Positions 656 through 20,373 are shown, numbered from the stretch's first letter. The stretch: DNA of 27,365 bases from a virus (IMGVR_UViG_3300042549_004128:1-27365); one strand, 5' to 3'. Notes: generated from the letters alone by a model not told the origin. Numbers and translations are program-made.

Positions 656-656
656 A

Positions 657-1702: not shown

Positions 1703-1740
1703 AGGACCTCTAATCAATGGGACTCAGACAGAAAGACAAC

Positions 1741-1766: not shown

Positions 1767-1789
1767 CTGTATTTGTCTGTCAGACAGGT

Positions 1790-2836: not shown

Positions 2837-2856
2837 AGTAGTAGTTAGTAGGTAGG

Positions 2857-3885: not shown

Positions 3886-3930
3886 TGGGAAATTTACTGT
3901 CTGCAGACACGCAGACAAAGCAAGACATAA

Positions 3931-6054
3931 TTACATTCCAGGCGGAGCCGCATCAGTAGGGCGACCGCCAGGTGACCCAGGGGCCTGAGTCGGAGACGGT
4001 GCGTTCTGTGCACCCTGAGGCCCCTGGGAGTTGGGGTTATTCAAGCCGTTGGCACTATCATCAACCGCACTCGCCTTGGCGTTGGCATTCGTAGCCACGA
4101 TAGACGGGATGGTAGCGATGATGATGTCCTCGGGCTCAATACGGTCGTCCAGACGGCGAAGCGTCTCACGAGCAAAGAATTCAGGGGAGATGCCAGGAAT
4201 CTGCATCAGGATAGGAGCCAGACGCTCCCAGTTCTGGATTTCCGACGCTTTGTTGGGTCGGCCAGAGGAGCCAGCCTCGATGTCAAGGTATAGGGCTTCA
4301 GCGATTTCATTGCGGCTAAACTGAGGCCAGACAGCCCCAGGACCTACAACTTTTAGGACAAACTCCTGAGAGAACTCCTTAAGCATGACCGCACCAGCCG
4401 CACGGCAGATAGCCCCAAGGAACTCGTCAAGGTCGTCAACATTAGAACCGACCGCAGACATGCGGCTAGACTCAGCCACAGACACTTCGGTAGCCGTAGT
4501 GCCAGAGGCGGCGGTTCCGCCGATATTAGCCTCTTGAGAGCCAAGAATCCGAAGCGTGTCATCCACGAGCATGCTTGTGTCGTACAGAGAAGGGTCGATG
4601 GCTACGGGCTTGATTTGCTGAAGGACGGATTCCACGCCCTGACCAGGCTGAAGGCCACGCAACTCTATGATAGAATGCGGAGGACGCTCAGACAGATTGG
4701 TCTTGTCAGTAGCGTCAAGCATGCCAAACGGAACCGCATAAGCAGGTCGGTTAGCATGACGGTGTTCACGCAGTCCCTCACGGGCACGGTTATACTCCAG
4801 TTGAACAGGACGGAGAAGTCGGACATCGGATTGGGGATAGATTTCCTTTTCGTTTTCAACTTCATTGAAGACAAGCGGGTAGATGGGCCAGAAGCCCTCA
4901 AGGTCGGGCCATGGAGATTCGGGCTCCTGCAGGAAGTCGTGGTAGCCATCAACGACGACATACTTCATCTTGTCTGACTTGGAATAGATTTCCCAGACAA
5001 CACAGTTGTCATTCTGCTCGGACGAAGAATGGTGACCGACATTACGATTCTCCATGTACGAGGTAAAGGTCTTACCAAGGTCAACCTTGTAGACTTCCTT
5101 GACCGCCTCAGGAGTCATGATGAACTCCTGACAAATCCAAGCGGCACCAAGGAACGAAGAAAGGTGTCTGCACTTAGGGTCAACGATGATACTGGTAGCA
5201 GGGGGGAAATCGAACACAACGCCTTCACGAACAAGGACTTCAGGCTTAGACTGAAGGTCACGCATCATCAGTTTTAACTGCTCAGATTCAGGTGCGTCAG
5301 GCTTAAGGGTGTTATCTTCGATGTCTTGAGTGATACGCTCGATGCTGGTCAGTTGCTGCGTGATATCACGAATCTTGTCCGCATCTTCAGGGCGGGCTTC
5401 GGTGACACGCTCAAAGCCGACCTTTACGAAACCGACGCCCGTCACGCAGACACGGCGGACCAACTGCTTCATCTGAGCCTTGAAGTTAGGCTGCTGCTCA
5501 TGAATAACATGGGCGAATAGGATTTCCATGGTCTTGGCGACCTTGTCCAGCATCACTCGCTTCTGGGAACCCTGGCTGAAGTCCTGCATCAAAGCCATAC
5601 CTTGAGGGTCAGGTGGCATGCCCTGCTGGGCAGACATCGCAGACATGGCTTGGGCCTGTTGCAGCGTGGCTGAAGTCCCGTCCCATAATGCAAACTCAAG
5701 TCGCTTCTTACGCTTGGCCGTGGCTTTCGGATTCTTGCAATAAAGAGCCGCAACACGCTGGGCAATATGCCGTTGCGTAATGTTTGCGGTGTAGCGGTCT
5801 TCATCCATGGTGCCGCCAGCCCATTGCTTGCCAGACACGAAATCCATGTCTTCACGCATACGGGCGAACGGACGCTTCCAATGGTTCTTAGCGGCAATGA
5901 CCTTCTTACACCACTCCTTGACAAGCGTGGCACGAGCCTCGTCAGGCTTCGGAGTGTCACGGCGGATACGGCCTTCGCCATCAGGTTGACCCATCATCGG
6001 GTTTTCCCCAGGCATCGGCATGCCACCCATGTTCATCATGTCGTCAGGTTCCAT
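3931..6054 (-). CDS. Portal protein
   Basis: 707 aa directly after TerL; 'MREDMDFVSGKQW', 'TATEV', 'LDIEAGSSGRPNK' and a P/Q-rich tail, as in P22-like portals. Confidence 0.9.
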   Translation of the reverse strand: MEPDDMMNMGGMPMPGENPMMGQPDGEGRIRRDTPKPDEARATLVKEWCKKVIAAKNHWKRPFARMREDMDFVSGKQWAGGTMDEDRYTANITQRHIAQRVAALYCKNPKATAKRKKRLEFALWDGTSATLQQAQAMSAMSAQQGMPPDPQGMALMQDFSQGSQKRVMLDKVAKTMEILFAHVIHEQQPNFKAQMKQLVRRVCVTGVGFVKVGFERVTEARPEDADKIRDITQQLTSIERITQDIEDNTLKPDAPESEQLKLMMRDLQSKPEVLVREGVVFDFPPATSIIVDPKCRHLSSFLGAAWICQEFIMTPEAVKEVYKVDLGKTFTSYMENRNVGHHSSSEQNDNCVVWEIYSKSDKMKYVVVDGYHDFLQEPESPWPDLEGFWPIYPLVFNEVENEKEIYPQSDVRLLRPVQLEYNRAREGLREHRHANRPAYAVPFGMLDATDKTNLSERPPHSIIELRGLQPGQGVESVLQQIKPVAIDPSLYDTSMLVDDTLRILGSQEANIGGTAASGTTATEVSVAESSRMSAVGSNVDDLDEFLGAICRAAGAVMLKEFSQEFVLKVVGPGAVWPQFSRNEIAEALYLDIEAGSSGRPNKASEIQNWERLAPILMQIPGISPEFFARETLRRLDDRIEPEDIIIATIPSIVATNANAKASAVDDSANGLNNPNSQGPQGAQNAPSPTQAPGSPGGRPTDAAPPGM

Positions 6055-6068
6055 TTGCGGGAAAGTAG

Positions 6069-7667
6069 TTAAAAACCTCCAAAACGCAATAGGTTTTGTC
6101 TGCGTCGCTCATCGCCAGACGCTTGCTTAAGCCAACCCATGGTACCCGTGGCAAACCCCTCGATTTTCTTGATGACAGGATTGCGACCGCTGAACTGCTT
6201 GCTCAGGCCAAGGCCGATGTATGCCAGAGCATCGACGAAGTCATCATGCTTGGCTGCGGGGAACTTAAGGAGTTCCTGTTCAGCGTCTTGCATCCAAGGA
6301 GCGAACCGAGGGAAGTGCACCTTCCCCATGGCCATACGGCCACGAATTGCCTGGGCTCGTGTCTGCTTGTCCTTGGCTGGGGTGACCTCGTCGATAGCCC
6401 CGTAGGTGCTACGCTCTTGCATACGCTTGCGTAGGAATGGACCGATAGACTTGGAGATATGCCCCTTTTCCGCCCACCAGAGCATTGGCTTAAGTCGCTC
6501 CATGATGTCAATCATCGCCTCCACCACTTCGTCGGTCTGCTCCCGTCGCCACCAGACATCTGGCAGAATCCAGATGTCATCGTTCTCGTCCACCCCTACG
6601 GGAATCAGACAGGTTGCGTCACGGTCTTGGTCCATGGACACGGCATGGTCAGATGCCACATAGATGGTCAGGGCTTTTGGTAATTCAGATGGATTGTAAT
6701 ACTTAATCCAGTCCTTTTTGAAAAAGTCGCCGTCTTCAGGGGCGGGTGAGCCTTGGTACAGGGATGCAAAGCCTCGTGGGTTTAATGACCGTGCTCGCTC
6801 AAGAAAAGGGACATCAAACCGTTCTGGCCACAGGGCCTCCCCAGGCTGTCTGCCCATCGGGTCATCTCGGACAGCCAGGGCTGGCAAAGATAGAATCTTC
6901 CAATGCTTGGCTTCTTCCTCGTTGTAGTAGCCATTGGTCGGGTCAATCAGGCGGCCAATCAGGTCATCCTCGTGCCAGCGGGTCATGATAATGACCACTC
7001 GGCTGCCCACAGACATCAGGCGTGTCATGGCCACATCGGTGAACCAAGCCCACATCTTGTCACGGGTAGCCTTGGATTCAGCCTCCTCACGGTCCTTGAT
7101 TGGGTCATCGATGACCAAAAGGTCAGCACCACGGCCAGTCAGGGAGCCACCACGGCCTACGAACATGGCCTGACCGCCCTCTTTTGTCTGCAGCATCTCG
7201 GCAGAAGCAGACCCCTTGCGGAGTTTGGCGGTCGGAAATAACTGTCTGTAGACTGGCATCTGCACGATTTCACGGACGGCACGACCGAAATCCTTAGCGG
7301 TGTCCTCGTTGTAGGTCGCAAAGATGGTATGGCGGTAGGGGTCCTTGCCCATGAACCACGCAGGAAAGCGACGAGATGCCAGTTCAGACTTACCGTGTCT
7401 GGGAGGCATCGTGATAATTAGCCGCTGAATCGTACCCTTCTCCACCTCCTCAAGTGCAGCCGCAATCACCTCATGGTGCTTGCATGCCGTGTATCGGCTC
7501 CTGTCTGTGTTCTCAGGGTCGTCTGGGTCTGGCAGCGTCAACTTAGTGAACTCAAGCAGACTGTTCCGTCCACGCTTGATGGACAGAAGACGCTTGGCCG
7601 CACTAATCCTTTTCAGGTGTGCGGCTTGGGCGTTTTCGGCTGTCTGCTCTGGGTTGTCGTCAGACAT
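6069..7667 (-). CDS. terL: Terminase large subunit
   Basis: Walker A 'MPPRHGKSE', 'LTGRGADLLVIDDPIK', 'MTRWHEDDL' and nuclease 'HDDFVDAL'; probable start MSDDNP at 7667. Confidence 0.97.
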   Translation of the reverse strand: MSDDNPEQTAENAQAAHLKRISAAKRLLSIKRGRNSLLEFTKLTLPDPDDPENTDRSRYTACKHHEVIAAALEEVEKGTIQRLIITMPPRHGKSELASRRFPAWFMGKDPYRHTIFATYNEDTAKDFGRAVREIVQMPVYRQLFPTAKLRKGSASAEMLQTKEGGQAMFVGRGGSLTGRGADLLVIDDPIKDREEAESKATRDKMWAWFTDVAMTRLMSVGSRVVIIMTRWHEDDLIGRLIDPTNGYYNEEEAKHWKILSLPALAVRDDPMGRQPGEALWPERFDVPFLERARSLNPRGFASLYQGSPAPEDGDFFKKDWIKYYNPSELPKALTIYVASDHAVSMDQDRDATCLIPVGVDENDDIWILPDVWWRREQTDEVVEAMIDIMERLKPMLWWAEKGHISKSIGPFLRKRMQERSTYGAIDEVTPAKDKQTRAQAIRGRMAMGKVHFPRFAPWMQDAEQELLKFPAAKHDDFVDALAYIGLGLSKQFSGRNPVIKKIEGFATGTMGWLKQASGDERRRQNLLRFGGF

Positions 7668-7677
7668 CAAAAATGAA

Positions 7678-10134
7678 TTATCGGATAGGAATCCATCTGT
7701 CAACTCCACCAATGTTCACCTTAATTTCTTGAGTGTAAGTCGAAAAAGCGTTCGTGTGGTTTTGAACCACTTGATTAGTAAGAACAATGTCTGAAGCAAT
7801 GTTAATAGTATTTGAGAACAAAGAAGTTCCTTGAACCTCAAATTTGGCCGATGGCACAAAAGTCGAAGGGTTGACCCCGACTCCAAGCGAACCACTTGAT
7901 GTAATTACAAATGAACTACTGTCTGGATTTATATTGTCCTCGACAACTAGTGCGTGGCCTGTGCCAGTCTGGGTAATGCGAAGCAATGAAGCCGAAGTAG
8001 AGGCTGAAATAATCTGATTTGTAGAAAAGGTATTGATGGCTCCACGCAATGCCACGACCTGCCAGACATTCTGCCCATCACGATAGTTCAAGTTTGCATC
8101 ACCGCTGGCAATCCACATGTCACCACTAGAGGTAGCGGCGGTTGAGCCACCAATTCCAATGTTAACCCCTGCGGCTCCGCTTACTGAGGTTCCGCTTACC
8201 TTGCCAGTAAATGCAGCCCCAGAAAGGTTAGCCTTGCCGCTGAGGGCCGTATTAAGGTCGTTTTGCGAAGCAAGAGTCCCCGTGATTCCTCCCCAAACAG
8301 CACCGCCACCACCTACAGGGGCAGTCGTAAGCGTGGTTCCATCATTGAACATGATACCGCCAGCGTCCACCTTGATTGCGGCAGTAGTGCTTGGAGCAAC
8401 ACCGACACCGACCCTGCCGTTGTTATCAATCACAAACGGAGTAGTGTCTGGATTGTTAGAATCCTCGACTACTAATGCGTGACCTGTCCCAAGTTGCGTA
8501 ACACGCAAGGCGGCACTAGTTGTGCCAGCAGGAGCAGAAACAATCTGCGGAACAGTAAAGGTATTAGACAGATTACGAGATGCCAAGATACGCCAAGTCC
8601 CTAGTCCGTCTCGGTAATTAAGAGCAGACCCACCTGTGGCAATCCACATATCGCCAGCAGTCGTAGCCGATGTATCCGTCCCACCGACGCCGATGTTTAG
8701 TCCAGCCGCCCCATCGGTTGAGGTAAAATCAACTTTGCCAGTAAAGGTTCCGCCTGTTTTATTAACTCCAGCCGAACCTTGAGTTGTATTATCTGGGAAT
8801 GTGATTCCTCCGTGTGAAATCTCCAATCCCGTATTGGTACTAGCATCCCAAACACGAAGGGTAGTACCAGCATTAGAATCAAGATAAAGAGGACGAGGAG
8901 TAACATAGTCTTGCTCCGTAGTCCGCAACCACCCCGCTTGCCAGTTAAACTCGTAACCAATAGAGCAAACCAGACTGATGCCATAATTACCGCCACGGGT
9001 GGTGTCAAAACTGCCTTTGCCGATATACTGACCAGAGGTTCCATCGAAGATAATCGGACTGGTCACAACGCCACCAGTAAAAGTGCCGCCCCCGCCGCCG
9101 CCTGTCGGAGCCGTAGTCAAAGTAGTTCCGTCATTAAACATGATACCACCAGCATCAACCTTAAGTGCGGCGGTAGTGCTTGGAGCGACGCCAACACCAA
9201 TCCTTCCAGTAAAGGTTGCACCAGACAGGTTTGCTTTGCCGTCCAAGGCGGTTTGAAGCCCAGTAGTGTCACCAATGACATGAGAATGCGAAACAGGAGC
9301 ATACACCCCTGTATGCAAGTGGGTTGTATCAGACTTGCCGTCCAAAGCGGTTTGAAGACCAGTCGTGTCTCCAATCACATGACCATGAGCAACTGGAGCG
9401 TATACGCCTGTATGTAGATGCGTCGTGGCCGACTTGCCGTCAAGGGCTGCCTGAAGCCCAGTCGTGTCTGCGATTAAATGAGAGTGCGTAATGGGGGCAT
9501 ATACACCCGTGTGCAGGTGCGTCGTAGCAGACTTTCCATCTAATGCCGTCTGAAGCCCAGTCGTGTCTGCGATAAGATGCGTATGTGTCGTGTTTGCCTT
9601 GCCAGCAAGACCAGCAGTTACCGCCGTCGTCAGGGCGTACCCAGAAAGGTCTGGTCTTGCAGACTGTTCAGTCCAGGCAGACGGGTGGGTGATGGGACCG
9701 TAGCCAGCCGCACCAATCGTAGTGTTAAACTTGAAAAACCTATTGTCTGCGGTGACCATGTCTCCAGCAGAATAGATTTTGAAATTATTGTAGTCCTGAA
9801 TCTTGGCATTGATGAGGGCTTCCTGAAGGCCGACGACATTGCTGATAGGATGGGTGTGCTGGACTTCTGCCTTGGTATCAAAAATAGGAATCAATAAGGG
9901 CAGAATTTGGTTGTATACCTGGGGGACAAGCGTGCTCTGGTCTAGGGCGGAGTCACGGATATAGCCATCGTCACGCTGAATCTCAGACAGACGAGACATG
10001 ATGCCGTCAAGCGTACGCTTAACGCTGTCTAGTTCGCCCTCAATCTGGACGCCAGGTTGCTGAGTGGTCGGATTGACGATGCTGAAGGACTCAAAATCGA
10101 AAATGCGATTATAGGGAAATGGAGGCTGCGACAT
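7678..10134 (-). CDS. Tail fibre / fibre-like protein with phage tail repeats
   Basis: About 818 aa, G/T/A-rich; N-terminal anchor-like segment (QRDDG); HxH-containing 33-aa repeats (HTHLIADTTGLQTALDGK...); duplicated C-terminal modules. Confidence 0.8.
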   Translation of the reverse strand: MSQPPFPYNRIFDFESFSIVNPTTQQPGVQIEGELDSVKRTLDGIMSRLSEIQRDDGYIRDSALDQSTLVPQVYNQILPLLIPIFDTKAEVQHTHPISNVVGLQEALINAKIQDYNNFKIYSAGDMVTADNRFFKFNTTIGAAGYGPITHPSAWTEQSARPDLSGYALTTAVTAGLAGKANTTHTHLIADTTGLQTALDGKSATTHLHTGVYAPITHSHLIADTTGLQAALDGKSATTHLHTGVYAPVAHGHVIGDTTGLQTALDGKSDTTHLHTGVYAPVSHSHVIGDTTGLQTALDGKANLSGATFTGRIGVGVAPSTTAALKVDAGGIMFNDGTTLTTAPTGGGGGGTFTGGVVTSPIIFDGTSGQYIGKGSFDTTRGGNYGISLVCSIGYEFNWQAGWLRTTEQDYVTPRPLYLDSNAGTTLRVWDASTNTGLEISHGGITFPDNTTQGSAGVNKTGGTFTGKVDFTSTDGAAGLNIGVGGTDTSATTAGDMWIATGGSALNYRDGLGTWRILASRNLSNTFTVPQIVSAPAGTTSAALRVTQLGTGHALVVEDSNNPDTTPFVIDNNGRVGVGVAPSTTAAIKVDAGGIMFNDGTTLTTAPVGGGGAVWGGITGTLASQNDLNTALSGKANLSGAAFTGKVSGTSVSGAAGVNIGIGGSTAATSSGDMWIASGDANLNYRDGQNVWQVVALRGAINTFSTNQIISASTSASLLRITQTGTGHALVVEDNINPDSSSFVITSSGSLGVGVNPSTFVPSAKFEVQGTSLFSNTINIASDIVLTNQVVQNHTNAFSTYTQEIKVNIGGVDRWIPIR
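9235..9605 (-). repeat. About 3.5 tandem 99-bp (33-aa) repeats in the fibre gene
   Basis: TGAAG anchor at 9254, 9353, 9452 and 9551 (period 99); peptide HxH(L/V)I(A/G)DTTGLQ(T/A)ALDGKSxTTHLHTGVYAP. Confidence 0.92.
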
Positions 10135-10336
10135 GCGTGGACTTTTTAGAAATGGCAAAAAAATGCAAGATTAACAAAATGTCGGCTCGGATTTGATTCT
10201 GGAAAATTTTTAGCGGTTGGCCTGGTATCCATGCACGCACGACCTTTTCGGGGGGGTGGTCGGGGGTCGGGCCCACGCCCATACCCCCAGCCTACGCCCT
10301 CCTTAGGCGTAGGCGACCCAATGAATTCAATGGCTT

Positions 10337-10965: not shown

Positions 10966-11340
10966 TCGATGTCTGAAAAAATCTGCTCGACATTTTGGAG
11001 GTGATTGGGCAAAACAGTTTTCGCCATGCCAAAAACCGCATCCCAAAACGCCCCGCTGACCCCTCTGGTCATCGGCCTCACCCAAAACCCGACCCCTGTC
11101 TGTCGCTGTCAGACGCCTCAGGTCACCCACCCACCCCACAGCCCCAGCCACCAGCCCGCTGGAAATCAGACGGCGGAACCGACTCCTTCCCCTATGGGGA
11201 ATGTGAACGGTTCGCCCAGCAACGGTTCGCCGTCTGAACCTTCCCACGAGCCCACCCCCAGCCACCAGCCCGCCCAGCCCACGGAGCCTTCGGCTCAGAC
11301 GGCCCCCAATTCCACCCCCCAAAATTCCACCCAAAATCCC

Positions 11341-12531
11341 ATGCCCAACATCCCACCAGCCCAGCCCCAGCAGCCCGCCACCCCGAACCTCAAGGCTTTA
11401 GCCTTGGAAGCCTTAATCGGCCCTCGGGGAACCATCAAGCCGTCCTCTGGACGGAATGGTAACAAGAACCTCATCAAGAAGTGGCTCACCGAGAAAGGCG
11501 TAGCCTTTTCGGTGTCTGGTTGGGCCACGGTCAAGGAACTTGGTGCTGTCTATAATGACACTACTGACACCATCCTGAATCAGATGCTTCAGAAGTCTTC
11601 GACTTCTGCCCAGCCCAATCAGCAGAATCAGCAGACTCAGCAGACTCCGTCTGCCCCGACCGCCCAGCCCACGACCCCTCAGACAACTCCGTTGTCTGTT
11701 CCGACTCCCAAGACCCCGAAGACGGCGAAGCCGATGAAACATGCCCTTCACGACGAAGTCGTGGAAGTGATGTCTGTCGGTCTGAATGCCTTTGTCTTCG
11801 GCCCTGCTGGAAGTGGTAAGACCACTTTGGCTGGTTCGGTCGCTAAGTCCTTGGGACTTAGGCTGTTCATGACAGGAGCAGTCCGTAAGGACTTCAAACT
11901 GTTCGGTTTCATCGATGCCCATGGCAACTATCGGTCTACGACCTTCCGAGATGCCTTTGAAAACGGCGGTCTGTTCCTGTTCGATGAAATCGATGCCTCA
12001 GACAGCGGTGTCCTTCTCCAACTGAATGCGGCCTTGGCAAACGGAGTTTGCGACTTCCCCGATGCCACCATCAAGGCTCACCCTGATTTCAGGGTGATGG
12101 CTTCAGCCAATACCAACGGTGACGGTGCTACTGCATCTTATTCGGCAAGACAGTTGCTGGACGGTGCTTCTAAGGACCGATTCATGACCTTCACTTGTGA
12201 CTATGATAACAGTCTGGTGAAGCAAATCGTGGCGGACATGTGCAAAAATCCTACGGATTTGGCTGTCTGTCTGGATTGGAATGACGATGTCTGTCTGATT
12301 CGCAAGTTGGCTAAAGCCAACAGCATCAACCTCATCCTCAGCCCCCGAGCCACCTTCATGGGAGTGAAACTCCTGACGAATCCGAATCGCAAGGTCTTTA
12401 AGACCAAGGCCGATTTGATGGATGGCCTTGTCTGGAACAAACTGTCTGACGAAAATACCCGAAAGCGTCTCAAGGGCCTCTTTGAGGCCGAGAAAGCCAA
12501 GGCCATCGTCACCCCCGCTGTCACCGCCTAA
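11341..12531 (+). CDS. MoxR/CbbQ/CobS-like AAA+ ATPase with N-terminal extension
   Basis: Walker A GPAGSGKT, Walker B FLFDEID, 'HPDFRVMASANT', 'LDGASKDRF', 'LSPRAT'. The frame is open back to 11005/11026, but 11341 has the typical C/A-rich leader. Confidence 0.9.
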   Translation: MPNIPPAQPQQPATPNLKALALEALIGPRGTIKPSSGRNGNKNLIKKWLTEKGVAFSVSGWATVKELGAVYNDTTDTILNQMLQKSSTSAQPNQQNQQTQQTPSAPTAQPTTPQTTPLSVPTPKTPKTAKPMKHALHDEVVEVMSVGLNAFVFGPAGSGKTTLAGSVAKSLGLRLFMTGAVRKDFKLFGFIDAHGNYRSTTFRDAFENGGLFLFDEIDASDSGVLLQLNAALANGVCDFPDATIKAHPDFRVMASANTNGDGATASYSARQLLDGASKDRFMTFTCDYDNSLVKQIVADMCKNPTDLAVCLDWNDDVCLIRKLAKANSINLILSPRATFMGVKLLTNPNRKVFKTKADLMDGLVWNKLSDENTRKRLKGLFEAEKAKAIVTPAVTA

Positions 12532-12600
12532 CCCTACTGTCCAAAGGACAGCCCCTCACCCCGAGGGGTTGTCCGAAGGACAACCAACCAAAAAAAACAC

Positions 12601-13557
12601 ATGTCTAACGACCAACTCAAGGACCTCATGGTCCTTCCCAAAGAGCGACAGACGGTCAGTCTGTCTGAAGGTGTCCGTCTCACTTCGGAGTTCAAATCCA
12701 TCGGTGGATTTGTCCTGCTGGAAGCAGACAGCATCGAAAAGTATCTGGCCTTCCAGACCGTCTTCGACGGTAAGGCTACGGGCCATGAACGGCATTCCCG
12801 AACCAACTCTGCCTCCAAGTCTTGGGACTTGAATACGGGTTGGGAAGGCCACCAGAAGATTCTGGTGGAAGGCTGGAAGGCTGGTGTTGACGGTCTAAAG
12901 ACCGCCCAAGCCACCTTCCCTTCGACAGGTTCCTTCGGAAAAATCCCAGACAGCGACATTGCTGGAGGTTCGCTTTGCGTAGCAACTTACTGCTCTGGTG
13001 CTCCAGACTACTACGATGTAGACCCCGAGGAAGACAGCCTTGGTTCCACCAAGGTCATCAAGTTGGTGGTTCCTGTCGGTGCTACTGCTGGATACTCTGC
13101 AGAGTATCTGTTCAATCGTGGTGCTGGAATCGTGGCGGCAATCCAAGCAATCGAACGGTCTGGAAAGCAATGTGAGGTCTGGGCTGAATCTGCGGCCACG
13201 ACCTCTGGTCAGCCAATCTGTCAGCGTGTCTTAATCAAGTGGGCTGGTTCTCCTCTTGACCTGAATACGATGGCTGTCTGGTTGGCTCATCCTGCCACCT
13301 TCCGACGACTGTTCTTCTCTGGTCGAGAATGTCTGTGGAATTTCCAGACCCCTGTGGGGTCTGTCAGACACATCCTCGGCGGAGACTACGGTTCGACCTG
13401 TCAGGGTCCTACGGACAAGATGTCTGAAGGCACTATCTACTTGCCTCTGGCAAGAGACGGTAACTACGGCACTCCCAAGGCGGCCCTTCAGACTCTGTCT
13501 GAAATCTTCAAGTCCGCTGGGTTCTCCTTGGACTTCGGTGACCTGAGCAGCATGTAA
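12601..13557 (+). CDS. vWA/CobT-like partner of the AAA+ ATPase (degenerate MIDAS)
   Basis: 318 aa next to the AAA+ gene; 'IKLVVPVGATAGYSAE..NRGAGIVAAIQAIERSG..CEVW' and 'HPATFRRLFF' resemble phage vWA-like partners. Confidence 0.65.
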   Translation: MSNDQLKDLMVLPKERQTVSLSEGVRLTSEFKSIGGFVLLEADSIEKYLAFQTVFDGKATGHERHSRTNSASKSWDLNTGWEGHQKILVEGWKAGVDGLKTAQATFPSTGSFGKIPDSDIAGGSLCVATYCSGAPDYYDVDPEEDSLGSTKVIKLVVPVGATAGYSAEYLFNRGAGIVAAIQAIERSGKQCEVWAESAATTSGQPICQRVLIKWAGSPLDLNTMAVWLAHPATFRRLFFSGRECLWNFQTPVGSVRHILGGDYGSTCQGPTDKMSEGTIYLPLARDGNYGTPKAALQTLSEIFKSAGFSLDFGDLSSM

Positions 13558-13617
13558 GGACGAAACAGACACCCTTCGGGGTGTCTGTCTTGCGGTGAAA
13601 CCGCAACTGATGAGTCC
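13558..13617 (+). ncRNA. Hammerhead ribozyme, type II (HH1), GUC cleavage after 13589
   Basis: GGAC-GAA-ACAGACACCC-UUCG-GGGUGUCUGU-C-UUGCGG-UGAAA-CCGCAA-CUGAUGA-GUCC: all core nucleotides present with three perfect stems. Confidence 0.96.
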
Positions 13618-13637
13618 ATCAGACAACTTTTCCCACC

Positions 13638-13994
13638 ATGAAAAACCAAACCAAAATCCCCGCCAAACTCATCGCTCGTCCTAAGGACGAACTGCTTCCG
13701 CTTCGTCTGACCGACGCCCACAAGGAGGTGCTCAAAGACGGACGAAAGGTTCGACTGCTGTCTAAGTTGGTCAAGACATCCCCTCATTGGGGAACTGTCT
13801 GGGCTGAATTCGACGGCCTCCTCTGGGGCTTCGCCGTCTCCAACTACGCTCAGACAATCTCGGTCGGTGACCCCGAAGACAGCAACGAGAACCCCGAAGT
13901 CATCGATGTCGATGTCTGGTCGTTCAATACGGCCTACATGGAAGGCCGAATGGTTACTGTCTGCAAGGAACTCATCGAATACCCCTCTCTCTAA
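13638..13994 (+). CDS. Hypothetical early protein (118 aa)
   Basis: ORF with phage-typical codon usage and a C-rich leader, directly after HH1. Confidence 0.8.
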   Translation: MKNQTKIPAKLIARPKDELLPLRLTDAHKEVLKDGRKVRLLSKLVKTSPHWGTVWAEFDGLLWGFAVSNYAQTISVGDPEDSNENPEVIDVDVWSFNTAYMEGRMVTVCKELIEYPSL

Positions 13995-14001
13995 TCCCAA
14001 C

Positions 14002-14580
14002 ATGAAAATCAAAATCACCCCCCACCAAGCCGTCATGGCTGAAGTCGAAACCCTCAGACAAAACCGTCTGGCCATCCTGTCTTTGGGCGTCAAGGGGTTT
14101 ACCCCTTCCCAGATTCAGAGGATGTCTGACATGGTCGAGGAACTCGAAAAGAAAATCGCAGACTTCACCGAAGGTGCTCCGACTGACCACGGTCCTTACG
14201 CAGACAATGGCATTGGCTACAAACGGTATGTCTGCGAGACGAATCCTGCTGGATTCTGTCTGTCTGTTCAGAACCACATCGCTGAACTTGTCTACGCAAT
14301 CCGAATCAATCCGTCTCGTAAGGCCCCCATGGGATTCCATGAAGACGGAATCGATGCGAGCATGGCATGTGGCGTCTATCACCCCAGCAACTTCATCAAC
14401 TTAGACACCATCATCAAAAAGGCTGTCTGTCTGGACGAAGACATGTGGGAGCACTTCGTCGTAGCCCCCATTGAGGGCGAAGACAAGGAACTGTCTAAAG
14501 ACAGGCATAAACTCTGGTGCTTCACAGGCATCAGCCCCAAGACACGCATCTACGAGCGTGGCAATCGCAAGGGCGTCTGA
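14002..14580 (+). CDS. Hypothetical early protein (192 aa)
   Basis: Start MKIKITPHQ 7 nt after the previous stop; codon usage consistent with neighbours. Confidence 0.8.
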   Translation: MKIKITPHQAVMAEVETLRQNRLAILSLGVKGFTPSQIQRMSDMVEELEKKIADFTEGAPTDHGPYADNGIGYKRYVCETNPAGFCLSVQNHIAELVYAIRINPSRKAPMGFHEDGIDASMACGVYHPSNFINLDTIIKKAVCLDEDMWEHFVVAPIEGEDKELSKDRHKLWCFTGISPKTRIYERGNRKGV

Positions 14581-14640
14581 CCACCCACGCAACCCCAGCC
14601 ACCTGCCCATACATAACCTAGGCACAATACGCATGAGAAA

Positions 14641-14679
14641 GAAAGGTGCTTGACAATCGACAAATTGTAGGCATCTTTC
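14641..14679 (+). promoter_or_regulatory. Sigma70-like promoter within a hairpin (copy 1)
   Basis: TGCTTGACA-N7-AATTGTAGGCATCTT; perfect -35; core shared with 17418-17448. Confidence 0.7.
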
Positions 14680-14715
14680 CAATCGAGCATCACCTCCCAA
14701 CCCACAAAAAAACCA

Positions 14716-15156
14716 ATGAAATCCGCACCGCAATACGGCATCGTCATCCAGAATCTCATCGCTCTGGACGAACTGCACAACGAGGTCACGAACCGCCTGT
14801 CCCACATCGAGGCCAGCGTGGAAACCTACCTCGAAAATCCCAAGCACATCAAGAAGCCCGACACGCTGGGCAAGTGGAGCAAGCGTAATGCTGGCCCCCT
14901 TGCAGACATCGAACGAGCCCTTGACGACATCGGACAGGCCGAAGGCCACCTGACGACTCTGTCTGCCAACCTTGACCGCTGGCTAGACACGAAGTCTCCT
15001 GTGGACGGCGTGCCCAGCGAAGACATCAAGTTCGTGGACTATGTCCACATCATGGCTCGTCTGGAGGAAGCCCGTCTGAATCTCCAGAATGCGGAATGGC
15101 TCGTCAGCCAGCCCGAGTTCGTGACCTTCATCACCCACATCGAAGACAGCATCTAA
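14716..15156 (+). CDS. Hypothetical early protein (146 aa, helical)
   Basis: ORF after the promoter and a C/A-rich leader. Confidence 0.8.
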   Translation: MKSAPQYGIVIQNLIALDELHNEVTNRLSHIEASVETYLENPKHIKKPDTLGKWSKRNAGPLADIERALDDIGQAEGHLTTLSANLDRWLDTKSPVDGVPSEDIKFVDYVHIMARLEEARLNLQNAEWLVSQPEFVTFITHIEDSI

Positions 15157-15265
15157 TCCCTTTGCCTTGTCTGTCTGAGGTTCATGTTCCCGAACATACC
15201 TCATTGAACAGGCGAACCCAGACAGACAGGCATCCACTCTCACCCACCCAGACACCCCCACATAT

Positions 15266-15466
15266 ATGCCCACCATCAAGCCCACCATCCACAACCCAGA
15301 CGGCAATATTTTTGCCATCATCGGCATGGCCCAAGCGGCCCTCCGAAATCGTCCGACCTCGCTCGACCTTTTCAAGGCGAAGGTCAAGACAGCGATGTCT
15401 GACGGAACCGACTATGACGGCATGCTCGTCATCATCCAAGAATTCGTGAACATCGAAATCGACTAA
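15266..15466 (+). CDS. Small conserved phage/plasmid hypothetical protein (66 aa)
   Basis: 'DGNIFAIIG...AL...DYDGML' pattern recalled from small phage proteins; not checked against a database. Confidence 0.8.
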   Translation: MPTIKPTIHNPDGNIFAIIGMAQAALRNRPTSLDLFKAKVKTAMSDGTDYDGMLVIIQEFVNIEID

Positions 15467-15504
15467 CTTTTCACCCACCCAGACAAACCCAAAATAATAC
15501 CAAC

Positions 15505-15870
15505 ATGCCCAAAGCCCAAAAGCCCAAGTCCACCCCCGCCTTCCTCGTGGAGGTCGTGACCACCACGGTCGGGAAGAATCTCAAGGTCACCCCTGTGACC
15601 GTGGGAGACTTCACCGACATCCACAAGCACCTCGGCATCGAAGGCGGGACCTTCACCTTGGTCCGTCTGAACACCTACGGAGATGTCATGTATGTCGATG
15701 ACGAAGGTGCTCTCAAAGAGAACACCCTGATGTATCTGAACGGCAACTATCCCATCTACGGCAAGGGCCTTGTCTTGGGCTCGACCGCAGACGGAGATGA
15801 CAAAGCCCCGCACATGAACATGCAGGAAGTCGCAGACATGTGCCACCACTTTGAGGCCCGCCCCTACTAA
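15505..15870 (+). CDS. DUF3846-like protein
   Basis: 'DVMYVDDEGAL...PIYGKGLVLG' motif. Confidence 0.7.
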   Translation: MPKAQKPKSTPAFLVEVVTTTVGKNLKVTPVTVGDFTDIHKHLGIEGGTFTLVRLNTYGDVMYVDDEGALKENTLMYLNGNYPIYGKGLVLGSTADGDDKAPHMNMQEVADMCHHFEARPY

Positions 15871-15907
15871 CCTTCACCCACCCAGACACAACCAACCAGA
15901 CACAACC

Positions 15908-16324
15908 ATGAGCGAACCCATCCAGACCAACCACACCCAGCCCGACCTGTTCACCAGACAGGCCGAGGCTGTCCACGAGTTCAAGGCGAAAGCCTTGTCT
16001 GTCATGCGAGACGATGTCGCAGACAGGAAGCACCTCATCGATTCCTGCGTCAACTACATGCTCGCCATGCAGAGGGACATGAACCGAGTCCACGACAACC
16101 TCGCCATCGTCAGACAGCAACTCGAAAGCCGTGACTACGAGCGAGTGCTCAAGAACATGGAAGACGCTGGCTGGGTCATGTCTGTCATGAGGGGTCGAAT
16201 GAACCGTCTGTCCAAGGACTTGGTTCAACCCCTTTACAGCGAACGCCTCGCAGACAAGGTCGCCTCGCTCACCGAAGACAGGCCCATCCGAACCGTCACC
16301 CCAGACACCTCTGTCCAGAAATAA
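15908..16324 (+). CDS. Hypothetical early protein (138 aa, coiled-coil)
   Basis: Start MSEPIQ after the repeat leader. Confidence 0.8.
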   Translation: MSEPIQTNHTQPDLFTRQAEAVHEFKAKALSVMRDDVADRKHLIDSCVNYMLAMQRDMNRVHDNLAIVRQQLESRDYERVLKNMEDAGWVMSVMRGRMNRLSKDLVQPLYSERLADKVASLTEDRPIRTVTPDTSVQK

Positions 16325-16349
16325 CTCTCACCCCCAACCCAGACACACC

Positions 16350-16592
16350 ATGAGCCAACAGACAGACATGAACGGCATTCCCCTCCCTCCGCCCCCTGCC
16401 CCCTCGCAAGAGTGGGTAGACAAGAAGGCCACCGACTTCCTCGCTTGGGGTCGTGGCTCTTGGGGCCAAGGCCCCTATGACCAAGCCCGTTATGACAACG
16501 GGACGATGCTCCGCATCTGGACCGCCATCGCAGACAAGGCCAAGGCCCACGCCGAGTTCCTGTCTGACAAGACGCCCCACGAAACCAACTAA
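16350..16592 (+). CDS. Hypothetical early protein (80 aa)
   Basis: Bounded by repeat leaders on both sides. Confidence 0.75.
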   Translation: MSQQTDMNGIPLPPPPAPSQEWVDKKATDFLAWGRGSWGQGPYDQARYDNGTMLRIWTAIADKAKAHAEFLSDKTPHETN

Positions 16593-16619
16593 CCCTCACC
16601 CCCAAAATAAAATACGAAC

Positions 16620-17003
16620 ATGACCAAGTCCCCCGAAGCCATCACGAACGAAATCATCGCCATCCACGAAACTGTCTGCGACCTCAAGCGGAAGGCCCAG
16701 ATGCTCGCCACCTCCGACAAGCCCGAAGACAGGACGACCTACTTGGCCCTCAAGGCCGAGTGGGGTGTCTTGGAGAACAAGGTCGTGGACCTCGTCATCG
16801 AGCGTCGCCACGCCTTCCGTCTGGAGGCCATGCAGGAGAAGGCAGACATCAAGCACGACCTCGATGAGGAGATGGAGCCCATGACCCATGACGAGGAGAT
16901 GGACCTCTATGACAGCATCGAGTCTGCGAATCCGTCTGGCCGTGATTTGCCAGACAGGAACGAAGACGGCGAATACCTCAACGGCGGAGGCTACATGCCG
17001 TAA
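16620..17003 (+). CDS. Hypothetical early protein with acidic C-terminus (127 aa)
   Basis: Bounded by repeat leaders; D/E-rich tail. Confidence 0.8.
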   Translation: MTKSPEAITNEIIAIHETVCDLKRKAQMLATSDKPEDRTTYLALKAEWGVLENKVVDLVIERRHAFRLEAMQEKADIKHDLDEEMEPMTHDEEMDLYDSIESANPSGRDLPDRNEDGEYLNGGGYMP

Positions 17004-17039
17004 GACAGACAACTCTCACCCACCCAGAAAAACATACCT

Positions 17040-17399
17040 ATGCCCACCCCCGAAAAAGAAATGTTCCTCATCGGAACCATCATGTCTGTCTGCATGGCAG
17101 ACTTCAAAGCCAAGAACGAGGTCCCCAAGTTGGAAGACAGGCTTCCGCTGGGCGACCTCGCCATCACCGCTAGGGCCCATGAAGCCCTTGGCGACAAGGT
17201 CTGTCTGCATCTGGGCTTCGCTCAGAATGCGACCGTCTGGGGGAACACCCTCGGAGACGAAGACAGACAGACGAACGACATGGCCATGAAGAATGGCGGT
17301 CGCATCCTGTCTGCTTGGACCCTTGACGGAGAAGGTTACTATGTCATCACGGAGCACGACCGTTCCGTCACGACCATCATGCGAAAGGAAGACTACTAA
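17040..17399 (+). CDS. Conserved plasmid/phage small protein ('LG....T...WG....D...N......G.RILSA......ITE.DRS.TT....EDY' family)
   Basis: Recognisable motif pattern; function unknown. Confidence 0.8.
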   Translation: MPTPEKEMFLIGTIMSVCMADFKAKNEVPKLEDRLPLGDLAITARAHEALGDKVCLHLGFAQNATVWGNTLGDEDRQTNDMAMKNGGRILSAWTLDGEGYYVITEHDRSVTTIMRKEDY

Positions 17400-17406
17400 A
17401 AACAAA

Positions 17407-17455
17407 ATCGGGCAACATGCTTGACAGCCTAATAATTGTAGGCATGTTGCTCGAT
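17407..17455 (+). promoter_or_regulatory. Sigma70-like promoter within a hairpin (copy 2)
   Basis: TGCTTGACA-N7-AATTGTAGGCATGTT inside the inverted repeat ATCGGGCAACATGC/GCATGTTGCTCGAT. Confidence 0.7.
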
Positions 17456-17470
17456 ACCACTTTCCCCCCA

Positions 17471-17857
17471 ATGAGCAAAAACCCAGCACAGCGGCCCACG
17501 GCCCTCACTAAAGCGTTCCGTCATCTCCTGCACGACTACATGGTCGAGCGTGATGAAGGCAGGACGCCCTACACCTCCAAGGCGAGCGATGCCTACAAGG
17601 AGGCCCACCGTAAGTTTCAGGAGATGGCTCTGGAGGCCGACCAAGGTGTCGCCTCCGCTGTCGTCGCCTCCGTCTGTCGGACGGTCTATGACGAAATCAA
17701 GGACAAGAAGGGAGACGGCATCGAGGCCATCCAGCGATGGGACTTCGGCATCCTCCGTTCCCTGTCTGTCTTCTACTCGTCCATGAGGATGTCTGGCGAA
17801 GACAACTTCCTGTCTGAGAAACCCCTTCCCCCCAACAACAACCAAGATACCAAATAA
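17471..17857 (+). CDS. Hypothetical protein (128 aa)
   Basis: Start MSKNPAQ downstream of promoter copy 2. Confidence 0.78.
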   Translation: MSKNPAQRPTALTKAFRHLLHDYMVERDEGRTPYTSKASDAYKEAHRKFQEMALEADQGVASAVVASVCRTVYDEIKDKKGDGIEAIQRWDFGILRSLSVFYSSMRMSGEDNFLSEKPLPPNNNQDTK

Positions 17858-17864
17858 TACGAAC

Positions 17865-18356
17865 ATGACGAACAACCAGAACCAGAACGGTGGCTTCGAC
17901 CCGAACGGTCACCACATCGCCATGGAGGCTCAGGAATTCCTGAACTTCCTCGGACACATCACCCAAGCGACCGTCATTGCGGCGGTCACCGCTGGGTCCA
18001 TGTCTGAGGACATCAAGAAGATTGAGGACCTCCTGCAGGACGGCAAGGTGGACGAGGCCCTGAAGGAACTGCAGTTGATGAAGCGTGGCATGGTCCTCAT
18101 CAGCAAGACTGTCTGCAAGGTCGGTTCCGAACTGACCCTGCACGACCAGAAAATCTGCGAGGGCTGTGAGGCCAAGGGCATGTCCGTGGAGTCGGTGACG
18201 GCCACGCACATCGAACGGTTCCAGCAAGACACGAAGGGCTTCATCGATGAGTTCTTCTCTGCGACCCCGCACACCAAGATTGTCAAGCCGCCCGAAGGCA
18301 AGAAGAAGAAGGACGATGACATCGACCCCTTCAGTTCGGGCTCTCGGTTCAACTAA
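17865..18356 (+). CDS. Hypothetical protein (163 aa)
   Basis: Leader AAATAATACGAACATG similar to that of the 16620 gene; consistent codon usage. Confidence 0.8.
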   Translation: MTNNQNQNGGFDPNGHHIAMEAQEFLNFLGHITQATVIAAVTAGSMSEDIKKIEDLLQDGKVDEALKELQLMKRGMVLISKTVCKVGSELTLHDQKICEGCEAKGMSVESVTATHIERFQQDTKGFIDEFFSATPHTKIVKPPEGKKKKDDDIDPFSSGSRFN

Positions 18357-18366
18357 GAACCAGACA

Positions 18367-18438
18367 GGACGAAACAGGCAGACGCAACAGGCATGGTGCG
18401 TCTGTCTGTATCTGGGTGAGGCCCAGACTGACGAGTCC
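18367..18438 (+). ncRNA. Hammerhead ribozyme, type II (HH2), GUA cleavage after 18410
   Basis: GGAC-GAA-ACAGGCAGACGCA-(10 nt)-UGCGUCUGUCUGU-A-UCUGGG-UGAGG-CCCAGA-CUGACGA-GUCC: intact core, one G-U pair in stem III. Confidence 0.95.
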
Positions 18439-18489
18439 CTCGCAGAGACAACTTTCACCCCCAACCAAAAACCAAACAACCAGACAGAC

Positions 18490-18705
18490 ATGAAGCACAA
18501 CAACCGAAACCGTAAAGGCAACAAGCGGGCCGTCATCCTCGTCACGCAGATAGACATGCTCCCTCTCCATGAGGACGGCATGTGGGTCGTGCGGGAGGAG
18601 GTCTACGACAATCAGACAGGCAAGGCCGAGCAGACGGTCGAGCACAAGTTCGTCCACAAGGCGGACGCCCAGAAGTTCATCGACTCGTGGGTCGGCCAAC
18701 TCTAA
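18490..18705 (+). CDS. Hypothetical protein (71 aa)
   Basis: Start MKHNNRN after HH2 and the repeat leader. Confidence 0.75.
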   Translation: MKHNNRNRKGNKRAVILVTQIDMLPLHEDGMWVVREEVYDNQTGKAEQTVEHKFVHKADAQKFIDSWVGQL

Positions 18706-18712
18706 GACAGAC

Positions 18713-19201
18713 ATGGCCATGGAATACAGAGAGCACCTGTTCACAGACAGGCTCAACACGGACGCCATCGTGTCCTTCCACCTGAAGGTCGTGCCCAAGC
18801 CAGACAACAACTTCGGCACAGCGACCTATATCCTGCTTGGTGATGACGGCGAAGACAGGACCTTCATCGACCACTTTGAAGACACAGTCTCCAGACCGAG
18901 CAATGTCTGGTTTGAGCCCATGACGATGGGCGTGGAGGTGAACTCCGTCCGCATCGCCAAGAACTTCCTGTCAGACAGGTTCGGCCACGGGACCGATGAC
19001 TATGCCTGTGGTCCGTGCTATCTGGCAGGACAGGCGTGGGTGTCGTTCCGAGACAGACACGGTCGCCGTCTGGGGCTGTCCTTTGACGAGGTGTCCAAGG
19101 TGGTGGCAGACACGATTCGCTGGCGGTTCCCGCTGGACGAGATGGTCCTGCATTCTGCGGCCATCAGTCGCAACGCATCCCGCATCCACCCCACGCCGTG
19201 A
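18713..19201 (+). CDS. Hypothetical protein (162 aa)
   Basis: Start MAMEYRE 7 nt after the previous stop; last gene of the plus-strand block. Confidence 0.72.
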   Translation: MAMEYREHLFTDRLNTDAIVSFHLKVVPKPDNNFGTATYILLGDDGEDRTFIDHFEDTVSRPSNVWFEPMTMGVEVNSVRIAKNFLSDRFGHGTDDYACGPCYLAGQAWVSFRDRHGRRLGLSFDEVSKVVADTIRWRFPLDEMVLHSAAISRNASRIHPTP

Positions 19202-19202
19202 A

Positions 19203-19219
19203 GCCCCCGCTTTGGGGGT
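19203..19219. terminator. Possible hairpin at the convergence of the early and replication blocks
   Basis: GCCCCC-GCTTT-GGGGGT right after the stop; no clear U-tract. Confidence 0.3.
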
Positions 19220-19307
19220 ATGTCCTTTGGCTGGCCATGCTTGGGGTCGGGGTCGTCTTGGCTGGCCTAGCCATCGCCGCCTGTGCCACGACCTTTCGCT
19301 TCCGTCC

Positions 19308-19874: not shown

Positions 19875-20002
19875 GTCTCCAAGTTGGCGGCAGACATCCA
19901 GGCGGGTCAAATCGATTCTGTCTGGCCAGGGGACGGGGTTGGCTAATCAGTATGACAGTTGTCTGATGGCTAGACCTGCCTGTTAAGGCATGGGCGTAGC
20001 CC

Positions 20003-20240
20003 TTGAGGACACCATACTATCTTATAGTCCTCGTGTCCTCAAAATTTAGCGTTGATAGTCAACGACTTACGAAAGTGCTTTTCCGTTTTGAGGACGCGGC
20101 TTTGAGGACACGCTAAGTCATTGCAATACAGACACTTACAAATTGGCGTCCTCAAAAAACGCTCTTGAGGACACGATTTTGAGGACGGGCGTCCTCGACC
20201 ACAATTCGTCGGGTTTACACCACATTTCGTCGGGTTTGTC
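20003..20240. repeat. Iteron-like cluster, putative replication origin
   Basis: About nine GAGGAC-core copies (mostly TTGAGGAC) in both orientations within 200 bp, plus a 21-bp tandem pair CCACAWTTCGTCGGGTTT, in a non-coding stretch. Confidence 0.7.
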
Positions 20241-20314
20241 TGGCATGTCTGCAGACAAAACAGCCAGACACGCCTCAGACACGCTGCAAGATTCGTGTTT
20301 GACATTTGCGTAGA

Positions 20315-20351
20315 TAAATTACTAATGTCTCACCGAGACATTAGTAATTTA
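20315..20351. repeat. Perfect 17-bp inverted repeat with a 3-nt loop
   Basis: TAAATTACTAATGTCTC-ACC-GAGACATTAGTAATTTA. Confidence 0.95.
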
Positions 20352-20373
20352 CCCCAATGTGAATGTGGGCCGA

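Follow-up and report, generated by a model that had tools for sequence, protein, structure and literature searches.

What two putative self-cleaving ribozymes do inside a phage gene block is the question raised by IMGVR_UViG_3300042549_004128, a 27.4-kb piece of a tailed double-stranded DNA phage (27,365 nt; this whole stretch is called the window below). The window carries a plus-strand block of 15 open reading frames (ORFs), encoding a CobS-like AAA ATPase, a DUF7192 protein and the products of 13 small genes, and two hammerhead ribozymes lie between these genes. The initial annotation had proposed that this phage segments its early mRNA with such ribozymes. We propose, with a probability of roughly 0.6, that the hammerheads cut read-through RNA at two fixed junctions, which would leave the genes behind each cut with a new 5' end capped by a hairpin, and that a short tail would refold the cut end against rejoining.

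A structural descriptor for the type II hammerhead was scanned over the window, with 200 dinucleotide shuffles, both strands, as controls. Exactly two matches were found, both on the plus strand, compared to none in the 200 shuffles, and a descriptor scan of the window for type I or III hammerheads found none. Hammerhead 1 (HH1, bp 13558-13617) begins 0 nt after the DUF7192 stop codon and has a stem II of 4 bp, a stem III of 10 bp, a stem I of 7 bp, a GUC and a predicted cut after 13589. Hammerhead 2 (HH2, bp 18367-18438) has stems of 4, 12 and 7 bp in the same order, a GUA and a predicted cut after 18410, and the interval between the cuts (13590-18410) is 4821 nt. Truncated at the end of stem II, each motif has the hammerhead fold as its predicted minimum free energy (MFE) structure. 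Both carry the full core of Perreault 2011 (C3 U4 G5 A6 N7 G8 A9, G12 A13 A14, A15.1, U16.1 and H17) and, by the criteria of the same study, three stems that are paired up to the core, of which I and III end in loops and II is open. HH1 and HH2 differ outside the core and no long repeat connects them. The tertiary contact that joins stem I to stem II in hammerheads can be a loop I pseudoknot or a U1.7-A contact, and both window motifs have U1.7 and an A ahead of stem II (as do 148/160 and 145/160 motifs, respectively, of scan A of the survey described below). The descriptor, the shuffles and the fold thus bear out the two hammerheads of the initial annotation.

Hammerheads were then searched for in 34 records of related phages (reversed-pattern control: 0). 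Matches were present in 11 of them, including all six records that are at least 90% complete; the 23 records without a match are fragments of 10-69% completeness, and one of the 11 matches (G023) was not inspected. Three lineages carry the block, namely the window's own (with G010), G007/G008 and G001. HH1 lies 3' of the DUF7192 gene in G010, G007, G008 and G001, in which DUF7192 is 88, 54, 54 and 36% identical, respectively, and further copies stand behind DUF7192 in L148 and L211-L214. HH2 lies 3' of a homologue of gene g13 in the same four genomes (33-38% identity in G007, G008 and G001) and is also found in L214. The distant relatives G002, G003, G004, G019 and G020, which are without the AAA/DUF7192 block, have one hammerhead in the corresponding small-gene region. 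Among the relatives the core is invariant, stems I and III vary in sequence yet stay paired, and stem II occurs as GGAC/GUCC, GGCC/GGCC or GGGC/GCCC. HH1 of G010 is identical to that of the window at 60/60 nt, with flanks that are 90% identical upstream and about 50% downstream, where a gene has been swapped. More generally, the identity of the genes downstream of the hammerheads varies among relatives and the upstream genes are constant, giving a conserved plan of P0-AAA-DUF7192-HH1-variable genes-P1-genes-P2-g12-g13-HH2-variable genes-terminator. Two sense-strand hammerheads in one gene block, the mark of a clustered arrangement, are found in the window, G010, G007, G008 and G001. Random, unconserved placement, which the initial annotation had named as evidence against its proposal, was not what we saw: both junctions are kept in these four relatives. 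Because both hammerheads keep their junctions, cutting at these fixed positions is likely to be under selection.

Just 3' of each ribozyme is a sequence that can pair with its core. In the HH1 hairpin (bp 13607-13622, plus strand), core bases CUGAUG pair with CAUCAG immediately 3' of stem II, a pairing that excludes the active fold; the hairpin is part of the predicted MFE structure of the HH1 3' product, and in secondary-structure energy the blocked fold lies 2.6 kcal/mol lower than the active one, a value obtained with the G010 copy, which is identical. The HH2 hairpin (bp 18428-18445, plus strand) pairs CUG-CGAG with CUCG-CAG and is 2.7 kcal/mol below the active fold, with a competing fold predicted beside it in the 3' product. 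The CUCG of HH2 could alternatively pair with loop I as a pseudoknot; the pseudoknot potential of loop I is 3 bp in HH1 and 4 bp in HH2, and in G010, where the HH2 tail is unchanged and loop I has changed, the HH2 match is lost. A C at core position 7 together with a GUCAG tail is found in HH2 of G007, G008 and G001 and in the single hammerhead of G003.

We surveyed phage hammerheads with two pattern scans of IMG/VR, which yielded 146 loci from 19/64 parts of the database (scan A) and 145 loci from 10/64 parts (scan B); full scans are estimated to yield about 420 and 830 stretches. The descriptor kept 181 and 147 distinct motifs, of which 160 and 126 (286 in total) were retained after clustering. 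Many of these loci contain 2-8 matches on one strand. The arrangement is common, and the two hammerheads of the window are a modest example of it. Of the survey hammerheads, 213/274 begin between -4 and +15 nt from a sense stop codon, as opposed to 13/274 random positions. Much denser type II arrays were seen in unrelated phages, with 10, 9 and 8 motifs within 4-5 kb in L057 (2134-6950), L035 (4590-8672) and L017, respectively.

An (A/G)UCAG tail just 3' of stem II, starting 3-8 nt after core A9, occurs in 23/160 motifs of scan A and 17/126 of scan B, compared to 0-1 in each of three control windows. The first base of this tail follows core position 7 in both scans (Fisher's exact test, 7e-5 in A and 0.003 in B): U7 with AUCAG was counted 16 and 5 times in scans A and B, C7 with GUCAG 6 and 10 times, C7 with AUCAG 1 and 0 times, and U7 with GUCAG 0 and 2 times. 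When the tail-bearing motifs are pooled, 37/40 are Watson-Crick complementary at core position 7 and 39/40 are able to pair, and none of 100,000 permutations reached 37. At least five contiguous core pairs are possible in 26/160 and 19/126 motifs (shuffle means 4.2 and 3.0). The 40 cases come from 35 loci with GC contents of 0.39-0.69, and both forms of the tail occur within L107 and within L247; an effect of GC content was rejected as the source of the covariation. Motifs of scan B have the tail more often if their stem II is at least 4 bp long (16/65, versus 1/61; a post hoc comparison), as a role in product release would predict. A loop I pseudoknot was rejected as the general role of the tail, since a 4-bp potential was found in 19.5% of 169 motifs, in 21% after swapping and in 3/27 tail-bearing motifs. 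A second type of tail, GACUU/GACUC 5-8 nt behind stem II (for example in L027, L030, L079, L090 and L113), could pair with G8-A9 and stem II and is weakly enriched (28/160, versus 8 at a far position). We found no description of the tail in the literature searched, which included the text of the Perreault 2011 supplement and did not extend to figures, subscription papers or bioRxiv supplements. By sequence comparison, this covarying core-blocking tail is the new feature here; operon segmentation itself is not new.

A mechanism can be proposed from these observations. Host RNA polymerase would start at three promoters (P0, P1 and P2), and each hammerhead lies two genes behind one of them (P0-AAA-DUF7192-HH1 and P2-g12-g13-HH2). 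The ribozyme would fold once stem II has been made, and then cut. According to the type II topology, the upstream piece should be left with the stem III hairpin and a cyclic phosphate at its 3' end, whereas on the downstream piece stem I would follow immediately after a 5'-OH. The tail is then predicted to pair with CUGANGA and displace the 4-bp stem II, freeing the upstream piece and blocking rejoining, and to add another hairpin at the 5' end, in front of a C/A-rich leader that is itself unstructured. Decay and translation of the variable downstream genes would in this way be uncoupled from the conserved upstream pair, as by a natural insulator: if the cut ends resist decay, the variable genes behind each ribozyme would receive a standard, insulated message. 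Cleavage itself has a precedent, as three clustered phage arrangements cleaved in vitro and one in Escherichia coli according to the available text of Perreault 2011 (PMC3088659).

Several points weigh against this proposal. HH1 aligns over the whole Rfam Hammerhead_II model (RF02276) and shares its core, topology and cut site, but both window motifs have a longer stem II and stem III, HH1 scores 29.9 bits (E-value: 0.022) compared to a gathering score of 37 bits, and HH2 was not listed in the window search at E-values up to 5; this curated threshold is a library cut-off and not a failure of the ribozyme consensus, and we do not file the motifs under the family. An Rfam search of the window and four relatives for other ribozyme classes gave only weak Hammerhead_II matches, the remaining matches looking like chance. 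Cleavage at 13589 and 18410 is predicted from motifs, folds and conservation. Two RNA runs match the window, each with 0.05 of its words; their assembled contigs have a depth below 6 and cover 15/30 and 5/30 bins in a patchy manner, and no joints or end pile-ups are listed at such depth. One RNA contig ends at 18370, 40 nt before the HH2 cut, which is not evidence either way. The effects of a 5'-OH and of 5' hairpins on decay are those of E. coli and Bacillus subtilis, and may differ in the host of this phage. With respect to the tail, clustering used shared 10-mers only and thus removed relatedness only roughly, and scan A has too few motifs with a 3-bp stem II (5/160) for the stem II association. 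A looser test for any five paired bases was weak (103/160 motifs, compared to 71 shuffled and 96 swapped, in scan A; 61/126, compared to 50 and 58, in scan B). As only 40/286 survey hammerheads carry the exact tail, it is not needed in general, and for HH1 of G007/G008, HH1 of G001 and the one hammerhead of G002 the alternative pairings are weak and less stable than the active fold. Finally, where the tail is strong, blocking is favoured over the active secondary structure by 2.0-2.7 kcal/mol (tertiary contacts uncounted), and because the blocked fold is the more stable one, the tail may act before the cut rather than after it.

If it does, the tail would be a switch that leaves cleavage partial, the cleaved fraction being set by ribosomes at the abutting stop codon or by polymerase pausing. 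The same energy difference speaks for this, as does the position of the tail so close behind core A9 that it would be made within a fraction of a second. HH1 directly abuts a stop codon and most survey hammerheads lie within 15 nt of one, and the available text of Perreault 2011 (PMC3088659) raises regulated cleavage of phage hammerheads in general terms. However, the energies omit the tertiary core and Mg2+, adjacency to stop codons is equally common without a tail and may reflect compact genomes, and the link between the tail and a longer stem II is explained just as well by product release. We regard a switch before cleavage, although the main rival, as a rather unlikely explanation, and we are similarly doubtful of its more general form, in which phage type II hammerheads with an antisense tail would be a widespread subclass of switches, coupled to translation or kinetically tuned: ribosome traffic at the abutting stop codon would determine whether the core folds and cuts or is caught by the tail, and hence how much of the mRNA for the next genes is processed. 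If that were true, tail-bearing hammerheads would be natural regulated hammerheads. A different role is that the hammerheads are mainly decay triggers or silencers of the upstream pair (DUF7192 and g13), whose messages would be shortened or ended by a cut just past their stop codons, or that they clear away leaky read-through in a lysogen. In every case it is the gene upstream, not the one downstream, that is the conserved neighbour, an integrase is encoded in 4/5 complete relatives, and operator-like palindromes are present at the promoters. Against this, the type II topology would leave a hairpin of 4-12 bp on the upstream 3' end, protecting rather than exposing it, and in 226/274 cases of the survey a Shine-Dalgarno-like word follows the hammerhead by no more than 35 nt (a count without a control), which points to the downstream gene; we consider such silencing improbable. 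It is more improbable still that the motifs are without activity or mere neutral passengers, and that gene cassettes are exchanged by recombination at them and at the repeated leaders. Gene content does change directly behind HH1 and HH2 and the leaders are repeated, but core bases are invariant while the stems change with compensation, the two hammerheads within a genome have little sequence in common outside the core, and the motifs occur in one orientation only.

The initial annotation had also suggested that the 4821-nt RNA between the cuts could circularise, by ligation through host RtcB or, as we considered in addition, through a chimeric hammerhead. Hammerhead cut ends have the chemistry for RtcB in principle (PMC8782182, in the part available), the two hammerheads of the window have the same stem II sequence as each other, as do the two of G001, so that a chimeric fold could form, and the HH1 tail could then protect the junction from being cut again. 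The relatives do not bear this out. RtcB was found in 0/5 complete relatives (the control matched in 10/14), so that an enzyme from the host would be needed, and the stem II halves of G007/G008 mismatch (GUCC and GGCC). G007/G008 and G001 carry their strong tail on the last hammerhead, where it cannot protect the junction, and G003 has a tail on a single hammerhead. As a protector of a circle junction the tail was not supported, as it was not enriched in hammerheads with a downstream partner (4/46, versus 13/62). Two promoters inside the interval would make 5'-triphosphate RNAs, and only read-through from P0 would yield the 4821-nt piece. A tail that shuts the ribozyme once it has cut, as predicted, would likewise speak against a circle. 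According to the available text of Perreault 2011 (PMC3088659), circles were looked for and none were found. Circularisation of this RNA is thus unsupported, and we consider it very unlikely.

Of the 14 spacers between the 15 ORFs, the six that exceed 60 nt all fold better than shuffled sequences (z-scores of -3.2 to -7.3, with 0-3 of 300 shuffles as stable) and the eight of 38 nt or less have no structure; the description of nearly every longer spacer as holding a structured element was accurate. A GC-rich stem-loop that matches no known ribozyme (bp 12538-12582, plus strand; -32.8 kcal/mol, z-score -7.6) lies between the AAA and DUF7192 genes. It is kept in G010 and L212, replaced by a different 12-bp hairpin in G007 and absent in G001. 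A long bulged hairpin after g5 (bp 15163-15232, plus strand; -34.3 kcal/mol, z-score -7.1), which has no Rfam match and is a candidate site for host RNase III, is likewise kept in G010 and L212 and absent at this position in G007 and G001. The block is closed by a weak terminator-like hairpin (bp 19203-19219, plus strand; terminator scan), and G007 and G001 have a strong hairpin followed by a T-run at this point. The element CCAAAGGACA with a GC hairpin occurs twice: at 12541-12570 on the plus strand, 3' of the AAA gene, and at 19201-19230 on the minus strand, where the block ends; the two form one inverted repeat and each was called terminator-like. Hairpins of 16-24 bp are of the kind that RNase III cuts. 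The claim that segmentation proceeds without host nucleases is not supported, as ribozymes account for only 2/6 structured spacers, and a further three hold hairpins of this length, themselves not conserved, that are possible RNase III sites.

A leader sequence had also been linked to the ribozymes. AGACAACTTT has exactly two copies in the window, at 13621 and 18446, each made up of the start of a common leader and, before it, the last bases of the tail that pairs with the core (in HH1) or the sequence next to that tail (in HH2). Both hammerheads are indeed followed by it and the cassette leader, but it is not conserved: it is confined to the window and G010 and absent from G007, G008, G001 and L212, and was rejected as a ribozyme-linked signal. 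By comparison of these genomes, the long hairpins and AGACAACTTT are lineage-specific.

Of the promoters assumed above, P1 and P2 have the motif TTGACA-16-(C/T/A)ATnnT. P0 is a candidate first promoter (bp 10987-11015, plus strand), degenerate in the window and accompanied by a palindromic operator-like site; it is the second-best window site for a matrix built from the relatives' promoter sites, and G007 and G008 have a clear TTGACA-16-CATGGT at its position. The two promoter-hairpins of the initial annotation were found again. P1 (TTGACA-16-CATCTT, bp 14649-14677, plus strand, with an operator-like palindrome at 14657-14671) is at the same position in G010, G007, G008 and G001, its long hairpin being lineage-specific, with only weak folds in the last three. 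P2 (TTGACA-16-CATGTT, bp 17420-17448, plus strand) lies in a 20-bp inverted repeat (bp 17407-17455; -27 kcal/mol, z-score -7.7) and is kept in the same four genomes, nearly leaderless in G007/G008 and without conservation of the long hairpin. A generic sigma-70 scanner did not call the P1 or P2 promoter-hairpins. The P0, P1 and P2 sites have in common a short palindrome of approximate sequence CCGACA-N3-TGTCGG that overlaps the -35 box or adjoins it. Such an operator-like site was found at 10/12 promoters, a count that is partly by construction as the consensus was drawn from the same sites, and the P2 site of the window misses the cut-off of two mismatches. The palindromes are likely to be an operator network. 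Half-sites of the palindrome are repeated in a spacer near 20200 (20198-20233), and weaker copies were seen near the G010 integrase promoter. With two conserved promoter motifs inside the interval and an integrase in 4/5 complete relatives, a single T7-like early transcript is not supported. A phage single-subunit RNA polymerase (PF00940) was found in 0/5 complete relatives, in a search whose control matched nowhere, and no polymerase matched among the window proteins or the scanned G010 proteins. G010 encodes a 3121-aa protein (L209:9638-19003) that sits where related phages have ejection proteins; it has no match in Pfam or PHROGs, which neither shows nor rules out a virion polymerase.

The first gene of the block encodes a CobS-like (MoxR-type) AAA ATPase (bp 11026-12531, plus strand; phrog_249, E-value: 7.5e-48; Pfam AAA_5). 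Its start had been placed at 11341 but is likely to be 11026, as the N-terminus is common to the L001 and L213 ORFs; this N-terminus is long, rich in Pro, Ser and Thr and of low complexity, and its length differs among relatives. A hairpin at 11155-11245 falls inside this extension (11026-11340). The DUF7192 gene (bp 12601-13557, plus strand; PF23822, E-value: 6.4e-21), whose stop codon abuts HH1, is followed by two variable genes, g3 and g4 (bp 13638-14580, plus strand), that were recognized by comparison with relatives. G010 has no g3 and a g4 that is 53% identical, most of its later genes being 90-100% identical, and L211 and G007/G008 have other genes at this place. Genes g5-g11 (bp 14716-17399, plus strand) have C/A-rich unstructured leaders (YTCACCCMCCC) without a Shine-Dalgarno sequence. 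In this group, g6 matches phrog_1933, g7 matches DUF3846, and g11 is near unnamed clusters and clusters of the "type I restriction subunit M family" at 0.91 in the Atlas. Genes g12 and g13 (bp 17471-18356, plus strand) include the conserved gene 5' of HH2, g13, for which the family libraries and the Atlas gave no match. The last two genes, g14 and g15 (bp 18490-19201, plus strand; ORF calls), lie 3' of HH2, where G007/G008 and G001 have different genes. No Shine-Dalgarno word was found at any of the 22 window gene starts checked, C/A-rich leaders being in its place. The genes had been described as serving host takeover, for which nothing was found: only 2/13 small genes match a family at an E-value below 0.001 (phrog_1933 and DUF3846), neither with an assigned function, and searches of the block proteins against NCBIfam, Pfam, PHROGs and the Atlas gave no host-takeover annotation. 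Early expression of the block is plausible because of the host-type promoter motifs and the kind of genes.

The block lies between two minus-strand arms, one carrying tail, terminase, portal and capsid genes (1-10158) and the other RusA, primase-helicase, Cas4-like nuclease and helicase genes (from 19308). Complete relatives have genomes of 44-48 kb. The family is likely to be temperate, since a tyrosine integrase gene is present in 4/5 complete relatives and G010 has a small repressor-like gene (a weak match) divergent from its integrase gene. No capsid relatives were found in GTDB, the best terminase matches reach only 50-51% identity, and the closest cultured capsids are distant (Microcystis phage Mae-Yong1326-1, 47%; Rhizobium phage RHph_N65, 40%); these cultured matches are without a type II hammerhead in the descriptor scan. 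Hints to the host are limited to the missing Shine-Dalgarno words and one Atlas cluster that is mostly Verrucomicrobiota. The words CAGACA/TGTCTG occur 194 times in the window (7.1 per kb), compared to 33 expected by an order-2 model, in either orientation and in every one of the three codon phases, and inside genes 142 times, compared to 26 +/- 4 after synonymous shuffling. The four genomes that carry the AAA/DUF7192 block (window, G010, G008 and G001) have 3.8-7.1 of these words per kb, and 14 other relatives have 0.03-0.44 per kb. This genome-wide excess, which helps the pairing stems, is a DNA-level signal. A perfect AT-rich inverted repeat at 20300-20360 (z-score -7.6) lies 3' of a TTGACA and is adjoined by repeated GAGGACAC/GTCCTC words at about 20000-20190; the region is possibly an origin or control region.

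How the arrangement compares to known systems bears on what it may mean. The early mRNA of T7 and SPO1 is processed by host RNase III. Like these, the block would give a long message of small genes divided at intergenic structures, and its three long hairpins could be RNase III sites; it differs in predicted self-catalysed cuts that leave a 5'-OH and a cyclic phosphate, in its internal promoters and in the integrase of its relatives. Viroid and satellite hammerheads can be locked by alternative folds, and RiboJ is an insulator made of a ribozyme and a hairpin. Similarly, the ribozymes here would be shut off by refolding of flanking sequence, and ribozyme and hairpin would set a standard 5' end before the translation start, but the lock is a local hairpin of 5-7 bp in the mRNA of a DNA phage, covaries across unrelated phages and is found without a rolling-circle RNA. 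Retrozymes and ribozyme-flanked circular RNAs are, as far as the available text of the sources goes (PMC7229834; PMC6765202), also bounded by two hammerheads with ends that a host could ligate; those, however, are small units between repeats of one ribozyme, whereas the ribozymes here differ from each other and have 11 genes and two promoters between them, and the direct repeats with the same ribozyme at both ends that characterize retrozymes are lacking, as HH1 and HH2 differ outside the core.

The closest likeness is to the clustered prophage hammerheads of Perreault 2011 (PMC3088659). The available text proposes that these cut long transcripts into operon- or gene-length mRNAs, and that spliced or circular products, which were looked for and not detected, might arise. 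As in those prophages, sense-strand type II motifs lie between phage genes of changing identity; here there are only two, 4.8 kb and 11 genes apart, at positions conserved across a clade, with a covarying core-blocking tail that the available text does not describe, the feature described there being an activating loop I pseudoknot. On comparative evidence, the arrangement is genuine and is conserved, and its kind has been known since 2011. Segmentation of an early mRNA by ribozymes hence stands in part, in that cutting at fixed junctions is likely; the idea was already put forward in 2011, and its additions, independence from host nucleases and a role in host takeover, are unsupported. Effects on stability or translation were repeated as an unresolved idea by Weinberg 2019 (PMC6765202), and why bacterial and phage hammerheads exist is still treated as open in the available text of two sources (PMC6765202; PMC10085705). 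To this question the covarying tail offers a precise handle, as a one-base change in the tail with compensation at core position 7 would separate product release, a block to re-ligation and switching before cleavage. A natural lock or switch of this kind would matter for the design of ribozyme insulators. For the phages themselves, the conservation of hammerhead positions across the clade points to selection for cutting at particular junctions.

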